Of a stretch of 64,000 bases of DNA, positions 10,093 through 43,030 are shown one piece after another. Under the pieces are notes generated by a model. It searched no databases, was not told where the DNA came from, and saw only the letters and a list, made by a program, of their open reading frames with translations. This stretch comes from Candidatus Eiseniibacteriota bacterium. GTDB taxonomy: Bacteria > Eisenbacteria > RBG-16-71-46. The translations under genes and the position numbers were made by a program. Each line of letters starts with the position of its first letter. Within the stretch, counting starts at the first letter, position 1. The DNA lies in contig OY970178.1 in the NCBI GenBank assembly GCA_963707915.1, positions 736,001 to 800,000 on the forward strand, in the 5' to 3' direction.

Positions 10093-11130
10093 ATGGCCCA
10101 CCGATTCCAGACCCCCGCCGGCTACCGCCCCGCACTGACCGCCCTCGAGACGGAGAAGGCGATCAAGGAGGTCAAGGACTTCTTCCAGGCCGCCCTGGCC
10201 CAGGCCCTGAACCTGCGCCGCGTGACGGCGCCGCTGTTCGTGGAGGCCGGCACCGGCATCAACGACGACCTGAACGGGGTGGAGCGCCCGGTCACGTTCA
10301 CCGTGAAGGACCTCGGGAACACGACGGTCGAGGTCGTGCAGTCGCTGGCCAAGTGGAAGCGGTTGGCCCTGGCCGACCTGGCGATCCCCGCGGGCGAAGG
10401 GATCTACACCGACATGAACGCCATCCGCCCGGACGAGACGCTGGACAACCTCCACTCCATCTACGTCGACCAGTGGGACTGGGAGCGCGTGGTGGTCGCC
10501 GGGGAGCGCAACCTCGACCTGCTGAAGGCGACGGTGCGGGACATCTACCGCGCCATCCGCCGCGCCGAGGCGTTCGTCGGCGAGCGCCATCCGGTCCTCG
10601 GCGCCAGCCTGCCCGAGGAGATCACGTTCGTGCACGCCGAGGAGCTCCAGGCGCGCTTCCCGCACCTGTCGCCCTCGGAGCGGGAGACGCAGGTCGTCCG
10701 CGAGCACGGGGCGGTCTTCGTGATCGGGATCGGCGCGCCGCTGGCCGACGGCAAGCCCCACGACGGCCGGGCCCCCGACTACGACGACTGGAGCACCCCC
10801 AACGGGCGCGGAAACGGCCTGAACGGGGACATCCTGCTCTGGTACCCGGTGCTGGACGCGGTCTTCGAGGTCTCCTCGATGGGCATCCGCGTGACCCCGG
10901 AGTCGCTGCGCCGGCAGCTCGCGATGTCCGGGCAGACCGCCCGCGAGGGCCTCTACTTCCACCGCCGCCTGCTCGCCGGCGAGCTGCCGCTCTCGATCGG
11001 TGGCGGCATCGGGCAGTCGCGGCTCTGCATGCTGCTCCTGAAGAAGGCGCACATCGGCGAGATCCAGGCCGGCATCTGGCCGGCCCGGATGCGCGCCGAG
11101 CACAAGGAGCGCGGCATCCTCCTGCTGTGA
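10093..11130 (+). CDS. asnA: Aspartate-ammonia ligase
   Basis: VQSLAKWKR, HSIYVDQWDWE, GRAPDYDDW, GGGIGQSR. Confidence 0.95.
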   Translation: MAHRFQTPAGYRPALTALETEKAIKEVKDFFQAALAQALNLRRVTAPLFVEAGTGINDDLNGVERPVTFTVKDLGNTTVEVVQSLAKWKRLALADLAIPAGEGIYTDMNAIRPDETLDNLHSIYVDQWDWERVVVAGERNLDLLKATVRDIYRAIRRAEAFVGERHPVLGASLPEEITFVHAEELQARFPHLSPSERETQVVREHGAVFVIGIGAPLADGKPHDGRAPDYDDWSTPNGRGNGLNGDILLWYPVLDAVFEVSSMGIRVTPESLRRQLAMSGQTAREGLYFHRRLLAGELPLSIGGGIGQSRLCMLLLKKAHIGEIQAGIWPARMRAEHKERGILLL

Positions 11131-11277
11131 GCCCGCCCCCGCGCCGGGTGGTGGCCGGGGTCGGGGTCCCGGGCCTTCGGCGCGCAGTTGGAAGTCGCCG
11201 CCGCTGCGCGTAGGCTCGGCGCGGCGCGGCGGGAGACCCGCGGCGGTTCGTCGGAACCTGGGAACGGGAGGGACTCG

Positions 11278-11694
11278 ATGAGACTCGGGAGCGTTTGCCT
11301 GGTGGCGGCCGCGATCACGGTGCTGGCGTGCGGCGAGGCGGCCGCGGTCAAGCGAGCGGCCCAGGCCCGGCCGGCCGTCCAGGGCGCATGGGAACTGGTG
11401 TGGCCGGAGAAGACCGGCCACGAGCGGCAGATCAAGCTCATCACGCCCACGCATTTCACCTGGACCTGCTGGGACACGGAGACCCGCCTCGTGCTGGCGA
11501 GCGGCGGCGGCGGCTACACGCTGGTGGGGGACGGCTACTGCGAGCAGCTGCTCTTCGCCCAGGGTTACGCGGAGCACCTCGGCGGACAGGTCCTGTGCTT
11601 CCAGGTGAAGGTCAAGGGCGACACGCTGTTCCAGTTGAGCCCCCCCGGCGAGGACGGCATGCGCTCGCGCGAGGTGTGGAAGCGGATCCGCTGA
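11278..11694 (+). CDS. Exported hypothetical protein (small beta-barrel/lipocalin-like)
   Basis: Signal peptide, GAWELV near the N-terminus, EVWKRI at the C-terminus. Confidence 0.6.
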   Translation: MRLGSVCLVAAAITVLACGEAAAVKRAAQARPAVQGAWELVWPEKTGHERQIKLITPTHFTWTCWDTETRLVLASGGGGYTLVGDGYCEQLLFAQGYAEHLGGQVLCFQVKVKGDTLFQLSPPGEDGMRSREVWKRIR

Positions 11695-12038
11695 CGCATG
11701 GATCCGCGGCGCCGTCAGGGAGGCGGGAGGAGAGGGCCGGCGGTGCCGTCCAAGGCGATCCCATGCGACGGGCATCCCCGGGCGCTCCCGCCTCACCCGT
11801 CGTCGATGCTCCACACCCGCCGGGCTCCCGCCGGCCGCGTCGGCCCCGGTGGCGCCGCAATCGCCGCAGCGGCCACGCACCGTCCCTCTGGCACGCGTGA
11901 TGCTGTAGCCCGGCGTGGGGTGGGGGGTGTGCGGCTCGGCATGCACCAGAGCATGACAGCCTCTCCGGGCCAGCCCCACCCGCCTCACCTGGCCGACGAC
12001 ACTTCACGCGGCTCCCTGGACTCACCCGCCGAGAGGGA

Positions 12039-12923
12039 ATGGACACCATGCGCAGACCGATCACGCTCGCCATGGCCGCGGCCATCGTGCTGCTGGCCGG
12101 GGCCGCCGGCCTCTTCTTCACCAAGTACATGACCACCAAGTACGAGTACAACGACGTGAAGAACGCCGAGGAGTCGGCCCGCTCGCAGTACGCCGACGCG
12201 TTCAGCGCCATCGCGGAGATCCAGGACAGCCTCAACGCGATCGCCATCGGCGACCGCGGCCTCCCGATGGTCTCGGACGGGCTCCGGGCCGAGCAGCGCC
12301 TGACGCAGCCCAACAAGCGCGAGGCCCTCGAACGCATCGCCATGCTCAACGCGGGCGTCGAGCGCACCAAGGAGAAGATCCGGCGCCTCGAGGGGACCCT
12401 CCATCGGAAGAACCTCCGCCTGGACGGCCTCGAGAAGCTGATCGCCACCCTCAAGCGCGACCTCTCCGGCAAGGAGATGCTGATCGCGCAGCTCTCGGGC
12501 AGCGTGGACTCCCTGCAGACCGAGGTCACCGGGCTGCAGGGCACGGTCGTGGCGAACCAGACCGCGATGCGGGTGCAGGAGCAGACCATCGAGGAGAAGC
12601 GGCACGAGCTCGCCACCGTCGAGGTCATCGTCGGGACCAAGAAGGACCTGACGTCGTCCGGCGTCATCACGGCCAGGGGCGGCGCGCTGGGCCTGGGTCG
12701 AACCCTGGTCCTCTCCGGCCGCTTCGACCAGGGCCGCTCCACCCCGCTCGACACCGACCAGGAGACCATCGTCCGGGTCCCGGCCGCGAAGGTGGAGATC
12801 CTGAGTCCTCAGCCCGCCTCGAGCTTCACGGTGCAGGCGGTCGGCGGCCAGACCGAGATCCGCATTCTCGACCCGATGGAGTTCCGGAAGGTCAGGCACC
12901 TCGTCATCATGACGAAGGCCTAG
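12039..12923 (+). CDS. Membrane-anchored coiled-coil hypothetical protein
   Basis: N-terminal TM helix, long heptad region, GTKKDL C-terminal domain. Its TAG stop lies in the IS481 target site. Confidence 0.7.
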   Translation: MDTMRRPITLAMAAAIVLLAGAAGLFFTKYMTTKYEYNDVKNAEESARSQYADAFSAIAEIQDSLNAIAIGDRGLPMVSDGLRAEQRLTQPNKREALERIAMLNAGVERTKEKIRRLEGTLHRKNLRLDGLEKLIATLKRDLSGKEMLIAQLSGSVDSLQTEVTGLQGTVVANQTAMRVQEQTIEEKRHELATVEVIVGTKKDLTSSGVITARGGALGLGRTLVLSGRFDQGRSTPLDTDQETIVRVPAAKVEILSPQPASSFTVQAVGGQTEIRILDPMEFRKVRHLVIMTKA

Positions 12924-12924
12924 G

Positions 12925-13985
12925 TGTGGAGTCTCAGGACGTTGTTCTCACCCGGGGTCGCAACCGACTGAAGGGTGGTAGGCCGTCCAGACTACCGTGT
13001 GGACGTCTCTGGTTGTAGTAGCGAAGCCAGCGGGGCAGGACGCGGGCCCGGACCTCGGAGGTCAGGTAGGCGGCCCCGTAGGCCCACTCGCGGATCAGGG
13101 TCTGGATGAAGCGCTCGGCCTTGCCGTTCGTCCTCGGGCGGTAGGGCCGCGTACGTTTGTGGACCAAGCGCAGCCGTTCCACCTCGTGAGCAAAGCAGCG
13201 CGCGAGGTAGCCCGAGCCGTTGTCACTGAGGATTCGGCGGATGCGGATGCCCAAGGTGCGGAACCAGGCCACAGCACGACGCAGGAACGCTGCCGAGGTC
13301 ACGCCGGTCTCGTCCCGCAGCACCTCGGCATAGGCGATCCGGCTGCGGTCGTCGATGGCGACGTGCACGTAGTCCCAGCCCACCCGATGACCCCGTCGCC
13401 GGCGGTCTCCGGTGATGCGGTGACCGTAGAAGCCACTGATCCGCCCCAGTTTCTTGACGTCGAAGTGGAGCAGGTCCCCCGGGCGACGATGCTGGTAGCG
13501 GTTCGCGGGCTCCTGCGGCTCGAGCTTCTGGAGCCGTTCCAGCCCGGCGCGTTTGAGCACCCGCGCCACCGTTGCCCGCGGACGCTTCAGGTCCCGGGCG
13601 ATCTGCGGCCCGGTCATCCTCGTGCGCCGCAGCAGCAGGATCATCTCCCGCCATTCGATCGGGGTCGCGTGGGGGTGGCGCCGAGGCCGCGAGCTGCGGT
13701 CCTGCAGGCTGGCCGAGTCCTCGGCCTGGTAGCGGCCCAGCCACTTGTGGGCCGTCCGGCGGCTGATCCCTGCGGCCGTGGCCGCTCGGGTCACGCTCCA
13801 GCCCGACTCCCGTACCCGGCCAACAAGCAGTGCTCGACTGGCAGGGCAGGTCCGTGCTCCACTGTGGAGGTTCATCCGGGGTTCCTCGCTGGTCAGACGT
13901 TGACGGCTTCGAACACCACCAACATCTGTCAGAAGGACCCCGGTTGAACAGTCTCAACCTGTGAACAACCTAGTGAGACTCCACA
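12925..13985 (-). mobile_element. Complete IS481-family insertion sequence
   Basis: Terminal IRs TGTGGAGTCTCA / TGAGACTCCACA; 6-bp duplication CCTAGG at 12919-12924 and 13986-13991. Confidence 0.95.
12934..13875 (-). CDS. IS481-family DDE transposase
   Basis: HTH N-terminus, LHFDVKKLGRI, AIDDRSR, SDNGS, PRTNGKAERFIQT. Confidence 0.95.
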   Translation of the reverse strand: MNLHSGARTCPASRALLVGRVRESGWSVTRAATAAGISRRTAHKWLGRYQAEDSASLQDRSSRPRRHPHATPIEWREMILLLRRTRMTGPQIARDLKRPRATVARVLKRAGLERLQKLEPQEPANRYQHRRPGDLLHFDVKKLGRISGFYGHRITGDRRRRGHRVGWDYVHVAIDDRSRIAYAEVLRDETGVTSAAFLRRAVAWFRTLGIRIRRILSDNGSGYLARCFAHEVERLRLVHKRTRPYRPRTNGKAERFIQTLIREWAYGAAYLTSEVRARVLPRWLRYYNQRRPHGSLDGLPPFSRLRPRVRTTS

Positions 13986-28599: not shown

Positions 28600-28638
28600 G
28601 GCCCCGTAGCTCAGACGGATCGAGCAGCGGTTTCCCAA
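28600..28638 (+). repeat. Displaced 5' half of tRNA-Arg(CCT), copy 1 (att-like)
   Basis: 37/39 identity to 41712-41750; the match ends at the end of the anticodon loop. Confidence 0.9.
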
Positions 28639-31681: not shown

Positions 31682-32095
31682 CAACCCCGGCGGACTGGAG
31701 GAATCGCTACGCGCAAAACGGGGAGCCGGTCAGATGGACACCAAGTCTGCGGGGCAGGCACAGATCCAAGTCCCGGTTTTGAAAACCCTACAAGGGTGGA
31801 TGCACGCTTCTCCAATGGCTCGACCGAAACCGGAGTGCCCCAGCAGGAGGTATGGCCCCGCGTCGCCCCTATCTCGCTCGCCCACAAGGCAATGAGTCAG
31901 ATCGCCCCCGGCAGGCAGAAGGTGGCCCCGAGTTTGCTGCAAGTCTGGTGACCTAGTCTGTCCGCGCCAAGCTGGAGCGTGCGGGTGAGGTCGTGGGCTG
32001 GTCCTCGGGGAAGCCCCCGAGCGGCCGCGCCACCGCTGCGCGCCGGGGGATGTGGCCTCCGAATCGGCATTGTCTGCCATGGAGTTCACCCAGAC

Positions 32096-33863
32096 ATGAG
32101 CAAGACCCAAGTTGCGAGCCAGAACCGCTCGCTCCCGAAGGCCGCGACCGGCATCGCGGGACTCGACGAAATCACCGGCGGCGGCCTGCCGCGCGGCCGG
32201 CCGACGCTCGTCAGCGGCAGGGCCGGCTGCGGCAAGACCCTCTTCGCGATGGAGTTCCTGGTCCGCGGCGCGACCGCAATTCGGCGAGCCCGGCGTGTTC
32301 ATGGCCTTCGAGGAGACCGCCGAGGAACTGACCCAGAACGTCCGCTCCCTCGGCTTCGATCTCGACGAGCTCGTCGCACGGAAGAAGCTGCTGATCGACT
32401 ACGTCCGCGTCGAGCGCAGCGAGATCGAGGAGACCGGCGAGTACGATCTCGGAAGGCCTGTTCGTCCGCCTGGGTCACGCCATCGACATCGATCGGCGCC
32501 AAGCGCGTCGTGCTCGACACCATCGAGGCGCTCTTCGCCGGACTGTCCAACTCCGGCGCGTCCTGCGCGCCGAGCTGCGCCGGCTGTTCCGCTGGCTCAA
32601 GGACAAGGGCGTCACGGCGGTCATCACCGGCGAGCGCGGCGACGGCACGCTCACCCGCCACGGTCTCGAGGAGTACGTCTCCGACTGCGTCATCGTGCTC
32701 GACCACCGGGTCACCGAGCAGCTCTCGACCCGCCGGCTGCGCATCGTCAAGTACCGCGGCTCGGTCCACGGCACGAACGAGTACCCGTTCCTGATCGACG
32801 AGGACGGCATCTCCGTCCTGCCCATCACCTCGCTCGGCCTCAAGCACGAGGCCTCGACGGAACGGATCTCCACCGGGGTTCCCCGCCTCGACGCCATGCT
32901 CGGCGGCAAGGGCTTCTACCGCGGCAGCAGCGTGCTGGTCTCCGGAACCGCGGGCACGCGGCAAGACGAGCCTCGCGGCGCACTTCGCCGACGCGGCCTG
33001 CCGGCGGGGCGAGCGCTGCCTCTACTTCGCCTTCGAGGAGTCCGAGAGCCAGATCGTCCGCAACATGCGCTCGATCGGCCTCGACCTGATGCCCTGGCTG
33101 AAGAAGCGGCGTGCTTCGCCTCCACGCCACGCGGCCCACGGCCTACGGTCTCGAGACGCACCTCGCCGCGCTCCACAAGCTGGTGGGCGAGTTCGAGCCC
33201 AGGGTGGTGATCGTGGACCCCATCACCAACTTCCTGAAGGCGGGCACCCACGTGGAGGCCGAAGCGATGCTCATGCGTCTCATCGACTTCCTCAAGGCCC
33301 GGCAGGTCACCGCGGTCTTCACGAGCCTGACGCTCGGCGGCGGCATCCAGGAGCAGACCGACATCGGCATATCGTCGCTCACCGACACCTGGCTGCTGCT
33401 GCGCGACATCGAGCTGGGCGGCGAGCGCAACCGCGCCATGTACGTCCTCAAGTCCCGCGGCATGGCCCACTCCAACCAGATCCGGGAGTTCCTCCTGACG
33501 GATCACGGCGTCGAGCTCAAGGACGTGTACGTCGGTCCGGAGGGAGTGCTCACCGGATCCATGCGCATGGCACAGGAGGCGCGCGAGAAGGCCGCGGCGC
33601 TCGGCCGGCTGGAGGAGATCGGCCGGCGCCAGCGCGACCTGGATCACAAGCGCCAGGCCCTCGAGGCCGGGATCACGGCGCAGCGCGCCCGGTTCGCGGC
33701 GGAGGCGGAAGATCTCGAGTTGCTCATCTCCCAGGACCAGGCCGCCGCCGGCCGCGCGGCCGAGGGACGCGAGAAGCTGGCGCACAGCCGCAAGGCCGAC
33801 GAGCCGGTCCATGGAGCAGGCAACGGTTCCCGAAAGACCCCCAGATCGGGAGGACGCAAGTAA
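32096..33863 (+). CDS. kaiC: Double-domain KaiC ATPase/kinase with about six frameshifts
   Basis: [32 protein letters not shown], second domain GTAGT(G)[25 protein letters not shown]. Shifts near 32275, 32450, 32490, 32560, 32960 and 33110. Confidence 0.9.
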
Positions 33864-34222
33864 TGCACGACCAAAGCAAGCCGCAGGCCCTGGAGACGTT
33901 GGACGACTCCGCGCAGGTGGACCCGAATATCTGGGAGCTCCGACTGTACGTCGCGGGCAAGACGGCGCGATCCGTCGCCGCGCTGGAGAACCTCACCAGG
34001 CTCTGCGAGGAGCACCTCCCCGGCAAGTACCGGATCGAAGTGGTCGACCTGCTGGTCCACCCGAAGCTGGCCGAAGGCGACCAGATCATCGCGATCCCCA
34101 CATTGGTCCGCAAGCTGCCGCAGCCGATCCGCAAGGTGATCGGCGACCTGTCGAATACCGAGCGCACGCTGGTCGGACTTGCAGCTGCGTCCGTCCAAAT
34201 CGTAGTCACGCCGGTGCGATGA
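33863..34222 (+). CDS. kaiB: KaiB protein
   Basis: [31 protein letters not shown]. Confidence 0.92.
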
Positions 34223-34317
34223 ATCGACCGCAGCCCGGGTGCCGGCAGCCCGTCCAGGGTCTGCGAATGCAACGACAGGCAATGAGGCGATCGTCCGACA
34301 CCGTCCGAGACTCCGCC

Positions 34318-35975
34318 ATGAACGCCCACACCATCGAGGAGTTGCAGCTGGAGAACCAGCGACTGCGTCACCGGCTGGCGGAGGCCGAGGACGCGCTCCG
34401 TGCGCTCCGCGCGGGGGAAGTGGACGCGGTCGTCGTGGGCACCGATGGCCCGCAGGTCTACACGCTGGATGCCGCCGGCAAGCCCTATCAACTGTTGGTC
34501 GAGCAGATGCCCCAGGCCGCCGCTTCGTTCACGATGGACGGGGTCATCCTGCACGGCAACAGCCGCTTCGCCAGCCTCCTCGGACGACCTCTCGAGATGC
34601 TGGTCGGCAAGCCGATCTACGACTTCCTGGCCGACGAGAGCCGTGCCCCCTTCGCGTCCCTGCTGCGAGATGTCCAGGCCGCCGAGGTTCAGGCAGAAGT
34701 GATCCTGCGACGGGCGGACGGCACGCTGATACCCGCATACCTCGGCATCAACGCGTTGCGTGAAGGCCCGCTCGGCGTATGCCTGGTGGTCACTGATCTG
34801 ACCGAGCAGAAGCATTATGCCGAGTTGAAGCTCGCGCAGGAGGCCTTGCGAGAGGCCGACCGTCGCAAGAACGAGTTCGTCGCCATTCTCGCCCACGAGC
34901 TGCGCAATCCCCTGGGCCCGATTCGCAATGCGGCGCGCATCCTGAAGCTCAAGGGGGCCCTGGCCCCGGAGTTCAGGGTTCCGATCGAGATGATCGAACG
35001 GCAAACGGAACAACTGGCCCGGCTGCTTGATGACCTTCTCGATGTGTCCCGCATCACGCGCGGTGCGCTGGAGATGCGTCGAGACCGCGTCGTGATCTCG
35101 GGCATCGTCGAGGCATCGGTGGATGCCTGCCGTGAAGAACTGCTGCAGCGAGGAGTCGACCTGCGCGTGAGCCTTCCCGCCGAACACACCGAGCTTGTGG
35201 CGGACCGCGCCCGTCTCATTCAACTGCTCTGCAACCTGATCACGAACGCGGCAAAGTACACCCCATCGGGCGGGCATATCGAACTCACGGTAACAGCAAG
35301 CGACGGGATCCTGAGGACTTCCGTGAAGGACAACGGCCTGGGCATCCCCCCCGAGAGGTTGACGGATATCTTCGAACTCTTCGCGCAAGTGGACCGCTCG
35401 TCTGAACGGTCAGGAGGCCTCGGCATCGGACTCACGCTGGTTCGTCAGATCGCCACGCTCCACAATGGCAGCATCGAGGCGCGAAGCGGGGGGATTGGCC
35501 ACGGCAGCGAGTTCATCCTGACATTGCCCATTGCGGCCGCTACGGCGGCGGCGCCGGCAATGGCTCCCGTTCGGGCCCCGCGGCTGCGCCGAGACGCGTT
35601 CTGGTCGTGGACGACAACCGTGACGCGGTCGAGAGCCTGGCAATGCTGCTTGAAGTCGCCGGGCACGAGGTCCACTCTGCACTCGACGGGGATGCAGCCA
35701 TTGCCCTGGCCCAGGAATGCCGGCCAGACGTCGTACTTCTCGACCTCGGGATGCCCAAGGTCAGCGGCTACGAAGTGGCCCGGCGCATTCGCGAGCATCC
35801 TTGGGGCAAGAAGATCTATCTGGTGGCACTGTCGGGCTGGGGCCAGGCGGACGACAGGATGCATACGCAGGAAGCGGGCTTCGATGCCCATCTCGTCAAG
35901 CCAGTTGCTCCAGAAGCTCTCGAGCAACTTCTCAAGACGATGAACGCCCGACCGACTAGTCCCGCCTCAGCCTGA
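34318..35975 (+). CDS. PAS-HisKA-HATPase-REC hybrid histidine kinase (frameshift near 35570-35590)
   Basis: LAHELRNPL, NAAKYT, DNGLGI, GLGIGL; receiver VDDN..DLGMP..KP continues in another frame to 35975. Confidence 0.85.
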
Positions 35976-36204
35976 GCCTTGATCACAGCACCTCCCATTG
36001 GAGATCTGCTCCGCGATGCGCTGGTTGGTCTCGAGGCCGACCCCGAATCCCTGATCGCCGCTCCAGCCGGTGGAAGGGGTGAGGGCAACATGTAGCACCC
36101 ACATCGGCCTTAGTTCGTGAGGCTAGACATGTGCGCACCGTCTACCCGACCGCGTGCCTGATTACTTCCGCGCGCGATGAAGTCGTGCTAGCGTGTTGCC
36201 GCAC

Positions 36205-36241
36205 GGCCCCGCAGCTCAGACGGATAGAGCAGCGGTTTCCT
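36205..36241 (+). repeat. Displaced 5' half of tRNA-Arg(CCT), copy 2, interrupted by an IS110-family element
   Basis: 36/37 identity to 41712-41748; the loop's remaining AA resumes at 37672-37673 after the IS. Confidence 0.92.
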
Positions 36242-36269
36242 TCTGTGAAGCGGCCGCCCCTGTCAAGCG

Positions 36270-36530
36270 CGATGTGCGGGTACGTCGTTCTTGAGTGGAT
36301 GGTTCCAGTGGCCTCCTCCTGCTGTGGAGCCAGCCCGGCGTTGTCCTCGGCGAGGTTCCTCACCCTTCTGTCCGCGCTCTTCAGTGGCGGCCCGCAGGCT
36401 GCCGGCGCAAGAGGATCGTGCGATGGGGCGGAGGCGCCATCTAATGAACGGCCTCGACTGCAGCCATAGGAAACTACGCGCTCATCCGCCCCTTGTTCGT
36501 GAACGTCGCCCAGGGATGGAGATGATTCGC
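36270..36530 (-). ncRNA. Putative bridge/seekRNA of the IS1111-type element (ends approximate)
   Basis: Located in the 3' non-coding region. Carries GUUUCCUA and UUAG (target matches) and ACAGAAG and CAUC (element-end matches) in hand-folded internal loops. Confidence 0.65.
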
Positions 36531-36532
36531 CG

Positions 36533-37570
36533 TCACGCGACGTCGGCCTGCAGGCGTGACCGTCGCTCTGCCTTGCCGAACTCGGTCTCATCGCGCCACA
36601 TCGCGAACAGGATCCCGGCCAGCTTTCGAGCTAGAGCCACGATGGCGATGCGCTGACCACGACGCAGTGCGATGCGCTGTGCCCACAACCTCAACTCCTC
36701 CGTGCGCGAGTGCCGCGATCGGAGGATCGACCAGGCTGCCTCGACCAGCAGCCAGCGCAGACGGGTGTTGCCGGTCTTGGTGATAGCTCCGCGTTGCTGA
36801 CGTTCGCCGGAACTGAACTCGCTCGGGACCAGCCCGAGGTAGGCCTGGACCTGGTGTGCGCCTTCGAACCGCTGGACTAGATCGAGCGTCGAGACGAACG
36901 CCACCGCGGTCACCGGCCCGATGCCGGGCGCCGTGCACAAACGTTGCACGACCGGGTCCCCATCGACGATCTGTTCGATCGCCCGCTCGACGACCAGCAT
37001 CTCTCGGTTCACGCTATCCATCACGGCCCGCAGAGGCGCGATGATGTCGTGCAACCACTGCGGCGTTTCGATCTCGTCCATGCGCTTGCCGAAGCTCGAA
37101 GCCTGGCCGCTGCGCACGCGCAGGCCCTCGCGGCGGAGCAGCGCGCGCACGACCTGGATCTGCCGCACCCGTGTGCGGACCAGGTTGTCGCGCACGGTCA
37201 GCAGGGTTCGCACGCGTCGCTGGGGCTCTGAGGTGCGGTGCGCCCCGCGGTAGGCGCCGAGCCGGCAAGCATCCATCAGCGCTTGAGCGTCCCGGCGGTC
37301 CGTCTTCACCCGGCGGCTGCGAGTGGCGTACATCGGCGCGAAGTTGGGATCCGCCACGATCACCTCGTGCCCCAGCTCCTCGAGGCAGCGGGCGACCCAT
37401 TCGCTCTCGGTCGAGGCCTCGATCAGGATGCGGGCCCGTGGGCGCTTGCCCAACGCCTCAGCGAACCGGTCGTGACGTGTCAGGATGCGCCGCTCGACAA
37501 TCTCGCCGTCATTGCTGAGCCGACAGATTTGACTTTCATTCTTGTGGACGTCGATGCCAATATACTCCAT
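36533..37570 (-). CDS. IS110-family DEDD recombinase/transposase
   Basis: YIGIDVHK, IEAS, KTDRRDA, APGIGP, YLGLVPSEFSSG, ALARKL; GGAGG RBS. Confidence 0.95.
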   Translation of the reverse strand: MEYIGIDVHKNESQICRLSNDGEIVERRILTRHDRFAEALGKRPRARILIEASTESEWVARCLEELGHEVIVADPNFAPMYATRSRRVKTDRRDAQALMDACRLGAYRGAHRTSEPQRRVRTLLTVRDNLVRTRVRQIQVVRALLRREGLRVRSGQASSFGKRMDEIETPQWLHDIIAPLRAVMDSVNREMLVVERAIEQIVDGDPVVQRLCTAPGIGPVTAVAFVSTLDLVQRFEGAHQVQAYLGLVPSEFSSGERQQRGAITKTGNTRLRWLLVEAAWSILRSRHSRTEELRLWAQRIALRRGQRIAIVALARKLAGILFAMWRDETEFGKAERRSRLQADVA

Positions 37571-37739
37571 GGCTGACCTCCCAGTTCTTGCGGCTCTGAC
37601 CGCGTTGAACATCCTGTGGACCCGGCAACGGGTACCACGTCAGGCTGGGGGTCAGCCGCTTCATCTCATCTAACGCGGGACCGCATGAATACAGGGTGAA
37701 ATGGGCCTTGCGGCCTAGCAGGCGACGCGCGTACTACTT

Positions 37740-37781
37740 AGCATGAGCCCCAACGGTCTAGATTCCGTTGGGGCTCGTGCT
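37740..37781. repeat. 17-bp inverted repeat with an 8-nt loop
   Basis: AGCATGAGCCCCAACGG / CCGTTGGGGCTCGTGCT with one mismatch. Confidence 0.75.
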
Positions 37782-37824
37782 GTCTCGAGACTGGAAGAGA
37801 CGGCTCGGGACCTGAAAGGACGCT

Positions 37825-37850
37825 GAGACCGGGACCACACCGGGACCAGA
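37825..37850 (+). repeat. Arm-site-like tandem motif, copy 2
   Basis: GAGACCGGGACCACACCGGGACCAGA. Confidence 0.55.
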
Positions 37851-37927
37851 CAAGTGCTGACACGGACGGCGGGCGGGCTGGCGCTCCGTGAGAGCATGGA
37901 CGTAGGTGGACGGCTCAATCTTGGCGC

Positions 37928-38581
37928 ATGGGCATGAAGACCGGAGGACACGTGGCGGGCGCATCGCGAGGACGGTACTCATTGGGGGCTCTCAGGGGCC
38001 ACACGGAGCACATTCGCATCAAGTCTCGGCGAAAGCTCCGGGGAACCAGTCCTGAGCTAGATGAGGCGTTTGCCGTCCTCGCGCGGTTCATTGGGGAGCT
38101 TGAGGGGCTGCCCCGCTGCCTAGCTCCGAACGTCCACTTGCTCTTGTCGTGCCGCTTCATGAATCAAGTTTACGCTGCGCTCCTTCTGGCGGAATCGGGC
38201 CTCTTCGCAGAAGCAGCGATCTGCGAACGGGCGGCGATCGAAACGCTCTCGGCGGCGAAGCTCCTGCAGGTCAATCCGTCGATTGAGCAGCAGTACGAGA
38301 GTGGGCGGTTCCTGAAACCAGTTGAAGTGCGCAAAGAGCTGGAACGGCTCGGCTACCCTGAAGAAGTGGAGTGCCTACGAGGGCTCTACGGCGTCACGAG
38401 TGATGTGATGCACGTATCACGTGCGGCTGAGAGGTGGAGCACGAAGTGGCTCTCAGCCGATGAAGGGACGCTTCTGCTCGGCGGGAAGTACTCGCATACA
38501 GACCTGGAGAGCTTCACAGGGGTGCTGGTGACACTGACGCGTTGGTTCGCATCTGATCTGGAGAGCAATGCGAAGCAGTAA
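37928..38581 (+). CDS. Hypothetical protein (helical, island cargo)
   Basis: 217-aa ORF of lower GC; RAAIE and SDVMH motifs; start uncertain. Confidence 0.55.
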   Translation: MGMKTGGHVAGASRGRYSLGALRGHTEHIRIKSRRKLRGTSPELDEAFAVLARFIGELEGLPRCLAPNVHLLLSCRFMNQVYAALLLAESGLFAEAAICERAAIETLSAAKLLQVNPSIEQQYESGRFLKPVEVRKELERLGYPEEVECLRGLYGVTSDVMHVSRAAERWSTKWLSADEGTLLLGGKYSHTDLESFTGVLVTLTRWFASDLESNAKQ

Positions 38582-38748
38582 CATGGGGCAGCACCCGCTG
38601 CCTGGACGGGGGAGTCCGAGGCCTCTACGCGGCCTGGTGTCTCACTTGGCAACGCGCCCAGGCTGCACGAGCTTCGTGAGAATGGGCCAGAATGGGCGGT
38701 CTCGGGCATCGGAGCACATTCGAAGGGAGGGTGACAGCCGTGGCCCCC

Positions 38749-39195
38749 ATGTGGACTGACATCGTGCAGGCTTTGGGAGCTATCGGCACGCTACTGGTTG
38801 CGGTCGTCGGGTTCTGCTTCGTTGTTCGGCAACTGACGCAACTGGAGCGTCAGATCAGAGGCACGACGCATAGCGCGCTTTACGGCCAGGGCTTCGATCT
38901 GATGCAGTCGTTGGCCGCGACGCCGGAGTTGAGGTCGTACTTCTTCGACAATGAGGCCCTACCTGATGACCCTCATCTCAAGGCGAAGGTGTTGATCGCT
39001 GCCGAGACGGTTCTCGACTTTCACGAGCACGTCGCGGTTCAACGGTCCAACCTCCCTCGGGAGGTGTTCGCTCGATGGGAGGTATACATCCGGTCGATGC
39101 ACAAGAGCAGCATCGTGCTGCGCAACTACTTGAAGCTCCATCGTGAATGGTATGCGGAGGAGTTGTCCACGTTGCTGGCACATGGAGGTGATTAG
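38749..39195 (+). CDS. Hypothetical protein with an N-terminal TM helix
   Basis: MWTDIVQALGAIGTLLVAVVGF TM segment followed by RQL; lower GC. Confidence 0.65.
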   Translation: MWTDIVQALGAIGTLLVAVVGFCFVVRQLTQLERQIRGTTHSALYGQGFDLMQSLAATPELRSYFFDNEALPDDPHLKAKVLIAAETVLDFHEHVAVQRSNLPREVFARWEVYIRSMHKSSIVLRNYLKLHREWYAEELSTLLAHGGD

Positions 39196-39430
39196 CCCGA
39201 CCGTCCCGGGATGGGCCTAGCGAGGTGGAGGGGAGAGGCGTCGCCGAGGGCGCGGATAGCACTTGCTCGACCGCGCGTCGAGATGCGACCCCCTTGGCCT
39301 GAGTGCGCAGAACTCGAAGTCAGGGGACGGTGGCGGACGAGCACGACAGGGGCAGAGTGGACTCTGAGCGACGGATGGGAGGGGTTGGCGGCAGTAGGTG
39401 AACGGTACGGGACCGGAGGGGGGCGAGACC

Positions 39431-40003
39431 ATGAGACTGACGGGGGCAACGGCGGTCGTGGTGGCGACGCTGCTGGGGGCGGTCGTTACGGGCGACGCGC
39501 GGGCCACTGAGGAGTCCCCGCTAGAGGTCGCGCAACCGATCTGGTGCGAGAACGGCGTCGTCGTCTCGACCGTCACGGTCATTGTGATGAGAGGATCGGC
39601 GTGGCCAGGACTTGCGGTTGCGTGGACGGCAAAGCCGAACTTCGTACAGCGAGAAGGGAACGATGCGCCGCTCAGTCGAAACGCGGCAGCGATGTACGGG
39701 ATCGAGGTGAAGGTGTTGGAGGGGCGAGGTTGGCCGAGCCAGGCCTTCTCCTATGCCGACACGCTGGACACGCTGAATGTAGTCCTGGATCTTCGGAGGC
39801 TGAATCCAGGCGCCTCCTACTTGGCTGATTCGCTGGTGGTGGAGGCCACGGTGGAGTGCATCCTGACGAACGCAGGGCATGATCAACCATCGGCCCGCCA
39901 CGTGAATCTGACCGTCGAGGGGTCGCAGCGTTATGCCTACCTCCAACGGGTGTACCCGCTGGGCGACTATCGGACGCTTCCTCGACGTCGGGCCTTTGAC
40001 TAG
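39431..40003 (+). CDS. Exported hypothetical protein
   Basis: Signal peptide with an ARA cleavage site; GGAGG RBS. Confidence 0.6.
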   Translation: MRLTGATAVVVATLLGAVVTGDARATEESPLEVAQPIWCENGVVVSTVTVIVMRGSAWPGLAVAWTAKPNFVQREGNDAPLSRNAAAMYGIEVKVLEGRGWPSQAFSYADTLDTLNVVLDLRRLNPGASYLADSLVVEATVECILTNAGHDQPSARHVNLTVEGSQRYAYLQRVYPLGDYRTLPRRRAFD

Positions 40004-40491
40004 GCGGGCCGTGGCCCGCCGGAGGATGTGACGGCGGGGTGGCTCGCACGATGCCGCGCAGGTCGAGACGCGATTCCCTTGGGAGACTCGAAGCGTTGAT
40101 TCGAGAGCACGAGCCCGCGTTAGTCCTGCTGGATGTGGATGAGGCGCCAAGCGAGGCGGGGCAGATGAAGGCGAATGCCTTGTGCAGGCGGCTGAACGTG
40201 GCGTTGCTGTTCTTCGTGGGGCAACGCGGGCCGGATGGGCGGGTCGTGGACCCCGGGAAGGGCCCCGCGTCGCGCGGCCGACTCTGCTTGGCTTACTCTG
40301 CCGGCCGGGCGAACTTCCGTTTCACGCGAACGTCCACCATCCGCCGGATGGCCGGGCAAGCTATGCGACCCCACTCCATTCTCCGAAACATGATCGCACG
40401 GAATTCCTGCCGCCATGATAGGCTTGAGTCGTTTCGCGTTCAGGGGAACGCCTGAGTCCCCGTCACTTTGCGGTTAGAGGAGGCCGCCGCC

Positions 40492-41067
40492 ATGCGAACC
40501 AGCCCTGCTCTGATTGCAGCCCTGCTCCTTCTGCTGTCGGCGCCCGCGGGTGCGGACGTGTTCGAGATTCCGCTTCCCGAATTGGCGTGGACCTACGGAC
40601 CACAAAGTCCCGACCCGCGGACTGTCACGTTCCACCTTCCTGGCATTCCAGCCGTCATTCACGGCGCGTCCTTGCGTGTTCGAGGCACGACCGAAGTAGG
40701 CATCGTCCGCTGTGACCCCCCGCGTGGGGATTACCCCTGGGTGCCCTCTACCCTGGGCGAGATGTTCGCCGGGCCGGAGCAGTATTGGACCAGCCAAGCC
40801 ACGAATCCGCCGGTGGCCGGAGCGTTCGAGATGGTCACCCCGTTCGTGTTCCTTTCGTTCGACCACACCCCCGCGAATTGGACCTTCCTGGCCGACGGAG
40901 AGGGCACGATCTGGTTTTACGGGGCCATGGTGAGCGAAGTTCTCGATTGCATCTACTTGAATCCTCCATCGGTCACCGTGACGGAGGCCACGCTGATCTT
41001 CGACGCGGACTTTCTCGTGCCGACCCAAGCCCAGTCCTGGGGACGAATCAAGGCCGCGTACCGCTGA
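40492..41067 (+). CDS. Secreted protein with an SWGxxKxxYR C-terminal motif
   Basis: GGAGG RBS, signal peptide, ends VPTQAQSWGRIKAAYR. Read on the + strand directly from the sequence. Confidence 0.75.
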   Translation: MRTSPALIAALLLLLSAPAGADVFEIPLPELAWTYGPQSPDPRTVTFHLPGIPAVIHGASLRVRGTTEVGIVRCDPPRGDYPWVPSTLGEMFAGPEQYWTSQATNPPVAGAFEMVTPFVFLSFDHTPANWTFLADGEGTIWFYGAMVSEVLDCIYLNPPSVTVTEATLIFDADFLVPTQAQSWGRIKAAYR

Positions 41068-41225
41068 TTGTTCGTCGCGCCTGGAAGCACATCGCGTCGG
41101 CCGTGACGGGCGTGGCGCCCATCCTCCCTTGGCTAAAGTAAGGAAAACCAAAAATGAAGGGACTGGAAGGGATAACCGGGTAGGGTGGTTCAGTTTCCCC
41201 TTGACAAGTCGGGCAGTGGACGCCC

Positions 41226-41651
41226 GTGAAGAGCAAGCTGTACGCGGGTGAGACGCTCCTAGGCACGCTGACGCCATCGGGGCCACCTGCCGCGGGGTTC
41301 TGGGCCTCATACACATTCGACCCTGAATCGGCGTTTGAAGCCTACCGGGCGACACTGGCGGGGGTGAGTCGGTCGGAGCTTGATTGGGTCCAGGCCAGTG
41401 AGGATCCTGCCGCCATGTTCGCGGAGGTGGCTGCCGCTGCCGACAGGCGTTGGGCAGCAGCGGAGAAGCTGAACCTCCGGATGGTCACAGAGGGGTGGCC
41501 GGACAGTTTGCTCACGTGGATTCTCATCGATGGTAACCGCGCAACCGTGCGGGGCGCGCACCTGCGTTTCGAAGCAAAGGGGAATCCGGGCAGCGGCGAG
41601 GTCTCTGAGACCGGCACCAAGACCGGCACCAGACCCGGAGAGAGAGGTTGA
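41226..41651 (+). CDS. Hypothetical protein whose 3' end runs through the arm-like repeat
   Basis: 141-aa ORF ending ETGTKTGTRPGERG. Confidence 0.45.
   Translation: MKSKLYAGETLLGTLTPSGPPAAGFWASYTFDPESAFEAYRATLAGVSRSELDWVQASEDPAAMFAEVAAAADRRWAAAEKLNLRMVTEGWPDSLLTWILIDGNRATVRGAHLRFEAKGNPGSGEVSETGTKTGTRPGERG
41607..41633 (+). repeat. Arm-site-like tandem motif, copy 3
   Basis: GACCGGCACCA twice in direct repeat, about 80 bp upstream of the tRNA. Confidence 0.6.
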
Positions 41652-41711
41652 GGGGATGCCGTTGGCGAGTTGCGTAAGTCGAAGCGTGCAAGCGATAGTG
41701 GCCCGCGTTGT

Positions 41712-41788
41712 GGCCCCGTAGCTCAGACGGATAGAGCAGCGGTTTCCTAAACCGCGTGCCGCAGGTTCGACTCCTGCCGGGGCCACCA
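41712..41788 (+). tRNA. tRNA-Arg(CCT)
   Basis: Acceptor stem GGCCCCG/CGGGGCC, anticodon arm GCGGT-TTCCTAA-ACCGC, T arm GCAGG-TTCGACT-CCTGC, encoded CCA. Confidence 0.97.
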
Positions 41789-41914
41789 CGCTGCAGCGGC
41801 TTCGCCTTCACGCGACGCCCGATTGAGTGCGCCGCCCAACGCATCGGCGAGGATGGATCGCGCTCGCGACCAGCGGGGAAGGCTTGGCGCGGCCCGCGGC
41901 ACCGCGCGCGTCGG

Positions 41915-43030
41915 CTACTTCGTCGCGCCCGGCAGGCCCCGGCCGGTGACCAGGTAGGTGGCGAAGCTGCCCAGCCAGTGGCCACCCTCGTAGTGCTCAC
42001 CGGTCACGCGCGGGAGCGAGGCCTCGCGGTGGCGCCGGGCAAGCGCCAGCAGCCCCGGCCGTCGTGGGTCCGCCTCGGGCAGCCGCGCCGCGATCCCTTC
42101 CGCCATCCACGCCCTCGACAGGTTCAGGCCATCGAGGTGCGCGAGCTTGGGGTCGCTCGGGTCGGTCACGACGCCCGGCTCGAGCCAGTCGCTGCGGCCA
42201 TCGCGCGGCAACTGCGGCAGGAACGCGTCCAGCCAGCGGGCGAACTCCTTCGGCGGCAGGACACGGCCGACGACGTCCGCCTCCGCCAGGCACGGGGAGA
42301 GGAAGTCCTCGCCCGAGGGCTCGTAGTCGAGCGGGCAGCCGCGGTCGCCGACGTAGAAGCGCTTCACCGCGGCATCGAACACCTCGCCGCTCGCGCTGTC
42401 GCCGACCACTCGTGCCCAGTCGAGCGCCAAGCCGAGCGCGAAGGCGGTCTGGTTGTGCTCGCCGATGCGGATCGGCTCGGTGAGCTTCGGCAGCCACGTC
42501 GTCATCCGCTGCGCGCAGACCCGCGCCAGGGGCGCGACCGCGGCGGCCCACTCGCGCGCCTGCGGGTCGTTCCACTGGACCAGCTCCGCATGCAGTTGCA
42601 GCAGCCAGGCGAGCCCGTAGGGCCGCTCGAACGACGCGCGGCCGGGCGTCTCGAGGTAGCGCAGCTCGACCGCGATCCGCTCCGGCGTCAGGCTCGCGGC
42701 CAGCGCGGCGCGCGCCCGCGGCGCGAAGGGAGCGTCCGGATACCAGCGGGCGAGACGCGCCAGCAACCAGTGGCCGTGCACCGCCGAGTGCCAGTCGAAA
42801 CACCCGTAGAACGCCGGCGTCAGCGTGCGCGGAGGCAGGACGTCCGCGTCGCTGGCGAGCACGTGGGCGAGCTTGTTGGGGTACTCCTGGTGCACGCAGG
42901 CCAGCGCGAGGTCGGCGAACCGCTCGACCGCCGAGGCGGGCAGGGTCTCGGCAGCGCACGCGGGACCGGCGGGCCGGGCCAGCGCCAGCAGGGCGAGGGC
43001 AGTCGCGAGCAAGCGTGCGAGGCGGCGCAT
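41915..43030 (-). CDS. DUF2891-family protein
   Basis: EYPNK, FYGCFDWHSAVHGHW, FERPYG, HLDGLNLSRAW, YEGGHWL. Confidence 0.85.
   Translation of the reverse strand: MRRLARLLATALALLALARPAGPACAAETLPASAVERFADLALACVHQEYPNKLAHVLASDADVLPPRTLTPAFYGCFDWHSAVHGHWLLARLARWYPDAPFAPRARAALAASLTPERIAVELRYLETPGRASFERPYGLAWLLQLHAELVQWNDPQAREWAAAVAPLARVCAQRMTTWLPKLTEPIRIGEHNQTAFALGLALDWARVVGDSASGEVFDAAVKRFYVGDRGCPLDYEPSGEDFLSPCLAEADVVGRVLPPKEFARWLDAFLPQLPRDGRSDWLEPGVVTDPSDPKLAHLDGLNLSRAWMAEGIAARLPEADPRRPGLLALARRHREASLPRVTGEHYEGGHWLGSFATYLVTGRGLPGATK

Follow-up and report, generated by a model that had tools for sequence, protein, structure and literature searches.

Introduction

The stretch analysed here, a window of 64,000 nt from a Candidatus Eiseniibacteriota bacterium (OY970178.1, positions 736,001–800,000, forward strand; genome of 3,623,634 bp), raises the question of why a complete insertion sequence (IS) of the IS1111 type lies within the anticodon loop of a broken tRNA-Arg(CCT) gene. 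All coordinates below are those of the window unless a contig is named. A first-pass annotation, made from the letters alone, had proposed that an RNA guide encoded by the element directs it to this loop. Comparison of the sequence with that of its relatives led us to the same reading, namely that the element very probably encodes a guide of the seekRNA or bridge RNA type programmed for GTTTC-CT-AA of the tRNA-Arg(CCT) anticodon loop. The guide mechanism was already published in 2024; the tRNA anticodon loop as a natural target of it is new.

Results

An intact IS1111-type element splits an orphan tRNA half

The site and the element comprise the following features.

36205–36241, plus strand: orphan 5' half of tRNA-Arg(CCT), tRNA positions 1–37, reading GGCCCCGCAGCTCAGACGGATAGAGCAGCGGTTTCCT and ending at the T of the anticodon CCT
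36242–37671, minus strand: complete IS1111-family IS, 1428 bp between the ends plus one CT/AG core dinucleotide, with both junctions read
36533–37570, minus strand: transposase/recombinase gene, 345 aa, N-terminus MEYIGIDVHK, from translation and Pfam
37655–37663, minus strand: left subterminal inverted repeat TGAAGCGGC (element strand), with a 6-nt extension ATGAGA and the core AG outside it, to 37671
36246–36254, minus strand: right subterminal inverted repeat GCCGCTTCA (element strand), followed by a 4-nt extension CAGA (36242–36245)
37672–37673, plus strand: AA, the final two anticodon-loop bases, with non-tRNA sequence (CGCGGGACCGC...) beyond
41712–41788, plus strand: intact single-copy functional tRNA-Arg(CCT), reading GGCCCCGTAGCTCAGACGGATAGAGCAGCGGTTTCCTAAACCGCG, with an unoccupied 9-mer at 41742–41750
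28600–28638, plus strand: third, older orphan 5' half of tRNA-Arg(CCT), reading GGTTTCCCAAG, unoccupied

The left junction (36241/36242) reads GCAGCGGTTTCCT outside the element and TCTGTGAAGCGGC inside it, and the right junction (37671/37672) reads CTTCATCTCATCT inside and AACGCGGG outside, with CT present at both (36240–36241 and 37670–37671). Excision of 36242–37671 gives GCGGTTTCCTAA, which equals the functional tRNA-Arg(CCT) at 41712–41788 through 41750 and then diverges (CGCGGG versus ACCGCG). The emptied site is the tRNA sequence without duplication, and the element stands between CT and AA of the anticodon loop, so that the restoration of the loop claimed by the first-pass annotation can be read directly in the sequence. 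Between the orphan half and the functional gene there is one mismatch, C for T at 36212. The half at 28600–28638 has the anticodon CCC instead of CCT and has therefore lost the core dinucleotide CT of the IS.

The host genome has 53 tRNAs, including one tRNA-Arg(CCT) and one tRNA-Arg(TCT), and exactly three CCT-type 5' halves (28600, 36205 and 41712). ARAGORN recognised no tRNA in the in-silico emptied sites of the window element and three other complete copies (0 of 4). These results support the earlier proposal that the element occupies a dispensable half derived from an attachment site (att) while the functional tRNA is intact.

The transposase matches PF01548 DEDD_Tnp_IS110 (1.4e-15, residues 4–146) and PF02371 Transposase_20 (3.7e-24, residues 209–289), bears the GL-P----SG motif in its C-terminal part as GLVPSEFSSG, and is covered over residues 1–345 by the alignments of its homologues. 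The subterminal repeat is perfect over 9 bp, or 12 of 14 if extended, and its left copy is common to most homologues. The terminal extensions of 6 nt (gene-proximal) and 4 nt (far side) add up to 10 nt with the shared 2-nt core set aside, and 290 nt of non-coding sequence lie 3' of the gene (36242–36532) as against 101 nt 5' of it (37571–37671). IS1111 elements are described as having a transposase of 330–350 aa with the motif GL-P----S(t)G, a longer non-coding region downstream of tnp, subterminal repeats usually of 11–13 bp and extensions of 7+3 or 6+3 (Siddiquee et al., 2024; PMC11187229). We found the two recombinase domains, the length and motif, asymmetric subterminal repeats, insertion without target duplication and the longer 3' non-coding region. 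The element is assigned to IS1111 and not to IS110 because these features match those by which Siddiquee et al. separate the families (PMC11187229). In agreement with the first-pass annotation, 36242–37671 is an intact IS1111-type element within the IS110 superfamily, and it is the only full-length copy in the host genome. Beyond the window, a 115-bp segment of the same genome (G000:C1:258540-258654) is 74% identical to part of the transposase gene and probably represents either a remnant or another, distant gene of the IS110 family.

A predicted guide RNA addresses both sides of the insertion point

The 3' non-coding region contains a module with the following parts.

36421–36495, minus strand: target-binding module of the predicted seekRNA/bridge RNA, with outer stem, internal loop and hairpin, from the minimum free energy (MFE) fold and a 54-sequence consensus
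36466–36477, minus strand: 5' loop strand GUAGUUUCCUAU, in which GUUUCCUA (36467–36474) pairs with TAGGAAAC, the core and right flank on the element's top strand
36438–36448, minus strand: 3' loop strand UUCAUUAGAUG, in which UUAG (36441–36444) equals the left flank TT plus the core AG

The core of the module, GAGCGC...GGCGCC, spans 36433–36483 and encloses an internal loop of roughly 12 x 11 nt. The MFE fold of 36242–36540 (minus strand) gives GAGCGC, the 5' loop strand GUAGUUUCCU, the hairpin, the 3' loop strand UCAUUAGAUG and GGCGCC, all within a longer GC-rich stem. Outer stem, internal loop and hairpin are kept in the consensus fold of 54 distinct homologous sequences, where compensatory changes occur in 6 of the 11 predicted pairs; one pair of the hairpin, for example, is GC in 46 sequences and AU in 8. 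The structure originally drawn by eye was recovered in both folds. An Rfam scan of 35500–42500, with a library that has no bridge-RNA family, scored only the tRNA.

The guide positions first proposed are correct, since the reverse complement of 36467–36474 is GUUUCCUA and that of 36441–36444 is UUAG. The match proposed for the 3' strand stood in part: UUAG is complementary to CTAA, but the match is short, and the AUG that follows it (36438–36440) fits the left end of the element, of which it repeats the first three bases (ATGAGA) in a handshake-like manner. The target-specific part of this strand consists of UU and the core AG only. The target specified by the guide amounts to about 9 bp, GTTTC-CT-AA, which is the anticodon loop and one stem base pair. 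This 9-mer (GTTTCCTAA) is found intact once in the whole genome, in the functional tRNA, and the copy split by the IS is the only other.

Guides and flanks co-vary across the family

A protein search of the genome collection returned 79 loci with 55–80% identity. Element ends were located in each locus by the inverted repeats, and the loops were then compared with the flanks, which for most loci comprised 1.5–2 kb. Dropping rows without both ends or a recognisable module reduced the set from 81 to 61 to 50 for the longest-match test, and from 54 to 47 to 39 for the positional tests.

Eight positions of the 3' loop, which correspond to four bases of the flank, the AG core and the element's two initial bases, form a diagonal; each agrees with the left junction in 66–91% of 47 loci. 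In the set of 39 distinct guide pairs, the loop left of the core matched its own flank at 3.23 of 4 positions and the flanks of other loci at 1.52, and right of the core the corresponding values were 5.92 of 7 and 3.90. The observed match was reached, left or right, by none of 20000 permutations, and the longest-common-substring test with 50 guide pairs gave 0 of 10000. The correspondence can be read in single loci, such as L022 (loop AAUCGUUCCU and flank AGGAACGATT; loop CGCAUAG and flank CGCATAG), L031 (loop UGUCCUUCCU and flank AGGAAGGACA) and L037 (loop GGACUUCCU and flank AGGAAGTCC). Two properties of a seekRNA or bridge RNA, a structured internal-loop motif and a match to both target strands that co-varies with the flanks, were found. 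By this comparison, the idea of an RNA guide for the anticodon loop gained considerable weight.

Copies with the same guide recur in tRNA-Arg(CCT) halves

A scan of metagenomes with a 21-mer spanning the guide returned five loci, four of them IS copies; the fifth (L084) was rejected as a chance match of the 21-mer in unrelated DNA. When 89 genomes of the family to which the host belongs were searched for the right-end junction, 9 of them had it, at 10 places counting that of the window. The right flank is visible in five loci that carry the GUAGUUUCCUAU guide (L003, L083, L085, L086 and L105), and in all five it is the 5' half of tRNA-Arg(CCT), although L083 and L086, with flanks identical to each other, could represent one context. 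Homologues with the same loop at unrelated sites, which had been named beforehand as the observation that would speak against a guide, were not seen among these. At L082 the left flank alone is visible, ending TTAG. L107, whose guide lies beyond the locus, and L103, whose guide has decayed, also sit within tRNA halves, and L102 (the same site as L099), L104 and L109 adjoin a shorter tRNA-like block, AGAGCAG(C/G)GGTTTCC(C/T).

In L099/L102 and L109 the guide reads GAGGUUUCCCAU and the flank GGGAAACC instead of AGGAAACC, so that a two-base change in the guide is matched by the site. This sister lineage provides a compact natural example of retargeting. The closest relatives found come from uncultured soil and sediment bacteria, with at most 80% protein identity.

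Two further kinds of copy were noted in the same searches. L104 (G116:C360:21516-23696) is a 500-bp internal-deletion derivative that keeps both ends and the second module described below, having lost the target loop and the bulk of the transposase gene; possibly it is a non-autonomous copy resembling a miniature inverted-repeat transposable element. L106 and L111 (G124:C36 and C145) share the right end and have the flank AGGAATTTCC, which is not tRNA; their guides fall outside the loci, and they probably represent a sister lineage with another guide.

Contigs of two DNA sequencing runs and one RNA run span the junction between tRNA half and IS. None of them skips the IS, so that no empty site was observed, and in none of the runs did more than a third of the sampled words occur. 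A contig of 212 nt from a soil metatranscriptome (36204–36412) starts no more than 2 nt from the 5' end of the orphan half and crosses into the IS. It could be read-through from the tRNA promoter of the orphan half, antisense to the guide, and could equally be an assembly break at the repeat or carry-over of DNA.

The occupied half belongs to a set of island scars

The DNA around the occupied half, and comparable loci in a related genome (G001), are as follows.

37674–41711, no strand: island-like DNA of about 4 kb and lower G+C, separating the half with the IS from the functional tRNA
L095 (G001:C14) 10302–12960 and L096 (G001:C5) 438–1376: loci of tandem halves and integrases in G001

The G+C content between the halves is 58–69%, compared with 72–76% just to the right and 72% genome-wide. 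The identity of the half-tRNAs with the tRNA stops at the last base or two of the anticodon loop. In G001, two tandem orphan tRNA-Arg halves have a tyrosine-integrase match between them, and another such match lies directly 5' of a full tRNA-Arg(CCT); the unoccupied half there reads GGTTTCCTAG and fits 8 of the 9 bases specified by the guide. Because of the tandem halves, the lower G+C and the integrases beside tRNA copies in G001, the reading of the orphan halves as scars of islands integrated at tRNA-Arg(CCT) is well supported. Repeats of a tRNA segment ending in the anticodon loop and bracketing low-G+C DNA are present in the window. The tyrosine integrase associated with such islands was found in it neither by Pfam nor by a PF00589 search of the genome nor by tblastn with the integrase of a relative. 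A Pfam scan of the island-like DNA found nothing mobile.

The first-pass annotation had further claimed that the 7 bp of the loop also serve as the crossover region of an integrase. The identity ending at the loop edge and the integrases located 5' of the tRNA in G001 agree with this, the lack of an integrase in the window does not, and we regard it as plausible that the integrase crossover is the same 7 bp as the IS target.

Genomic islands that enter tRNA anticodon loops and displace a tDNA fragment were reportedly described by Williams in 2002. The window resembles such islands in its tandem repeats of a tRNA 5' half ending at the 3' edge of the loop, with low-G+C DNA between; it differs in that the present finding is an IS landing in the scar of an island and that no integrase could be detected for the islands of the window. 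The island arm adjoining the IS also contains, some 75 bp in, a perfect 12-bp inverted repeat with an 8-nt loop (37745–37776; GAGCCCCAACGG ... CCGTTGGGGCTC).

A second module mirrors the right end of the element

One further conserved segment was recognised in the non-coding region.

36364–36379, minus strand: second conserved module GAGCGCG-GACAGAAGG, candidate donor-binding segment, with ACAGAAG repeating the final 5 nt of the right end together with the core

At 41 of 42 loci, the variable base of this module agrees with the base that opens the right-end extension. Candidates for a second donor guide, complementary to the left end, such as UCAUCU close to the stop codon, were rejected, as they are not conserved in L003. 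The donor-binding bases of IS1111 elements often lie in a multi-loop, according to Durrant et al. (2024; PMC11208160). In L025 (2532–2850), the 26 bases past the right end are identical to the element's own internal non-coding stretch (ACAGAAGGATGAC... module), and the sequence has the appearance of a right end that recombined with the DNA encoding the donor-mimicking module of another copy, or was inserted into it.

Discussion

A plausible model of targeting

Considering the above results, we propose a model in which a guide RNA encoded downstream of the DEDD recombinase gene would be produced and bound by the recombinase, and its internal loop would address GTTTC-CT-AA. Read on the plus strand, the 5' loop strand (GUUUCCU) runs in the sense of the left target and the CT core and would pair with the bottom strand, while the 3' loop strand (UUAG), complementary to the top-strand CT-AA, would pair with that strand. 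The next three bases, AUG, might pair with the element end as a handshake guide. In the order of strand exchange that we infer, the circular element would recombine at the CT core and land between CT and AA without target duplication. The half now occupied would be an orphan, displaced by genomic islands that entered this same loop. Insertions into the functional single-copy tRNA were presumably lost by selection, so that only copies in spare halves are seen, and the absence of insertions in functional tRNAs rests on a small sample.

Evidence against the guide and alternative explanations

Several results weigh against this model. The whole 299-nt non-coding stretch is no more stable than its shuffles (z = 0.12), and folding energy was therefore dropped as evidence. 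The guide match is short, with 7–8 nt on one strand and 2 target-specific nt plus the core on the other, and in many relatives the matches to the flanks extend over 10 and 7 nt, compared with 8 and 4 here. The functional tRNA offers a perfect 9-bp site and is yet unoccupied, which fits selection without proving it. A promoter and terminator consensus scan of 36100–37800 found no such site, although host promoters may differ from the consensus, and no left-end-complementary donor guide was found by eye in the non-coding region. The contigs of the RNA run cover 36204–36412 and 37563–37658 only, none of them over the guide module; they cannot show strand or transcription, and therefore nothing is concluded from them on expression. 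Mis-called loops or ends were kept in the co-variation tests (e.g., L016, L021, L026, L043 and L048); they lower the observed means and therefore work against the co-variation result, not for it. Finally, the genome copies with the same guide all come from one bacterial family, and the window element and L085 share ATTCATGC in their left flanks, a few bases into the island arm, and because of this the occurrences are not fully independent.

This last point would be expected if the element were a hitch-hiker, inserted once, long ago, into an island attachment junction and then inherited and spread with the islands, so that its recurrence at one kind of site reflects shared ancestry; the tandem arrays of halves in both the window and G001 agree with this too. 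We consider this explanation unlikely. The flanks directly after CTAA differ among the window element, L003, L085, the X1 contig, L099, L104 and L109, and variants specific to the host occur in the tRNA halves (GCGATTTCC in L003 and GCGCAGACGGACCGAGC in L103, for example). The guide loops of the window element and L003 are identical although the hairpin loop and the remaining non-coding region have diverged, and this points to selection on the guide. In the sister lineage, guide and site changed together. Even a single ancient insertion would still fit the guide.

The short match of the window element bears on two other explanations. The loop strands in full (GUAGUUUCCUAU and UUCAUUAG) could be tuned to a longer primary target, roughly GTAGTTTCCTAATGAA, with the tRNA loop as a secondary site; relatives do use more of their loops, and the unmatched loop bases are conserved between the window element and L003. 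This appears very improbable, as no element with the same guide was seen at another kind of site, all five visible right flanks being tRNA halves, GGTTTCCTAA occurs once in the genome, and L085 and L105 vary an unmatched base of the 3' loop (UUCUUUAG and UUUAUUAG) with the site unchanged. Alternatively, the recombinase might read a cruciform-prone anticodon stem-loop, or the att site, directly, which would make the RNA matches incidental, and several known IS1111 targets are indeed potentially folded, such as attC and repetitive extragenic palindromic (REP) sequences (PMC11187229). We give this explanation hardly any credence: both loop strands co-vary across the family with flanks of unrelated sequence, IS1111 and IS110 elements have been reprogrammed by a change of RNA alone (PMC11187229), and no stem-loop can form at the occupied sites because the 3' arm of the anticodon stem is absent.

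Relation to known guide systems

The seekRNAs of IS1111 elements lie 3' of tnp, and in them the complement of the top strand precedes the match to the bottom strand (PMC11187229). ISEc11, ISKpn4, ISPst6 and ISPa11 (Siddiquee et al., 2024; PMC11187229) resemble the window element in their DEDD recombinase of 330–350 aa, subterminal repeats with asymmetric extensions and longer 3' non-coding region, as well as in the order of the guides and the overlap of the two matches at the insertion point. In contrast to that group, the window element would target a tRNA loop and att scar instead of a linear site, attC or REP, and has a shorter match.

For IS621, the guide geometry of the bridge RNA, a CT core and handshake guides have been described (Hiraizumi et al., 2024; PMC11208158). 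The window element is like IS621 (Durrant et al., 2024, PMC11208160; Hiraizumi et al., 2024, PMC11208158) in having an internal loop that pairs with opposite strands about a CT core, handshake bases and a second module mirroring the element's own end. It is unlike IS621 in that its RNA is at the other end, its subterminal repeats are long, and its donor part, for which one matching segment was recognised, is not a simple internal loop. The core reads AG on the strand of the gene because gene and RNA are inverted relative to the core when compared with IS621, and this inversion fits the reversed order reported for IS1111 by Siddiquee et al. (PMC11187229).

The IS1111-attC group (Post and Hall, 2009) and IS4321/IS5075 in the terminal repeats of Tn21 (Partridge and Hall, 2003), both as cited in PMC11187229 and PMC11208160, are similar in that the preferred site belongs to the site-specific recombination of another mobile element. 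A site owned by another mobile element is therefore dispensable to the host and may travel. In the present case, unlike those, the site is plausibly the tRNA-derived crossover region of tyrosine-integrase islands, and an identical copy of it lies in an important host gene.

None of the titles returned by a literature search pointed to an IS110/IS1111 element that targets a tRNA or an anticodon loop, and the word "tRNA" is absent from the main text of PMC11187229. The known mechanism stays as it is, and the natural targets of IS110/IS1111 described earlier (REP, integron attC, transposon ends and short linear sites) are joined by a further class, the tRNA anticodon loop, in practice the scars that integrated islands leave of it. 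We would tentatively go one step further and suggest that the lineage of this IS may have specialised in integrase scars, a case in which an RNA-guided recombinase and tyrosine integrases would have converged on the same few base pairs, although we would not put the chance of this quite at even.

Significance

If the lineage has indeed specialised in integrase scars, an address of about 9 bp in a tRNA loop would give the element a target that is not easily mutated away in any host, and safe landing sites would multiply with each island integration at tRNA-Arg(CCT). An element whose address is an important gene would persist because other mobile elements supply spare copies of that address. The IS would split the crossover sequence of the island and may lock the neighbouring island in place, and transcription from the tRNA promoter of the orphan half would enter the element in antisense to its guide RNA and transposase. 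For annotation, the finding explains a split tRNA fragment, and for engineering, the family offers about 50 related guide/target pairs on one scaffold.

Other observations in the window

A block of genes lies within the lower-G+C stretch between the two orphan tRNA halves. KaiC-domain matches extend over four overlapping frames on the plus strand (31979–32794, 32112–33089, 32695–33210 and 33111–33863), followed by KaiB (33065–34222), a PAS histidine kinase (33811–35943) and a response regulator (35607–35975). The split kaiC frames represent either a frameshifted pseudogene or assembly indels.

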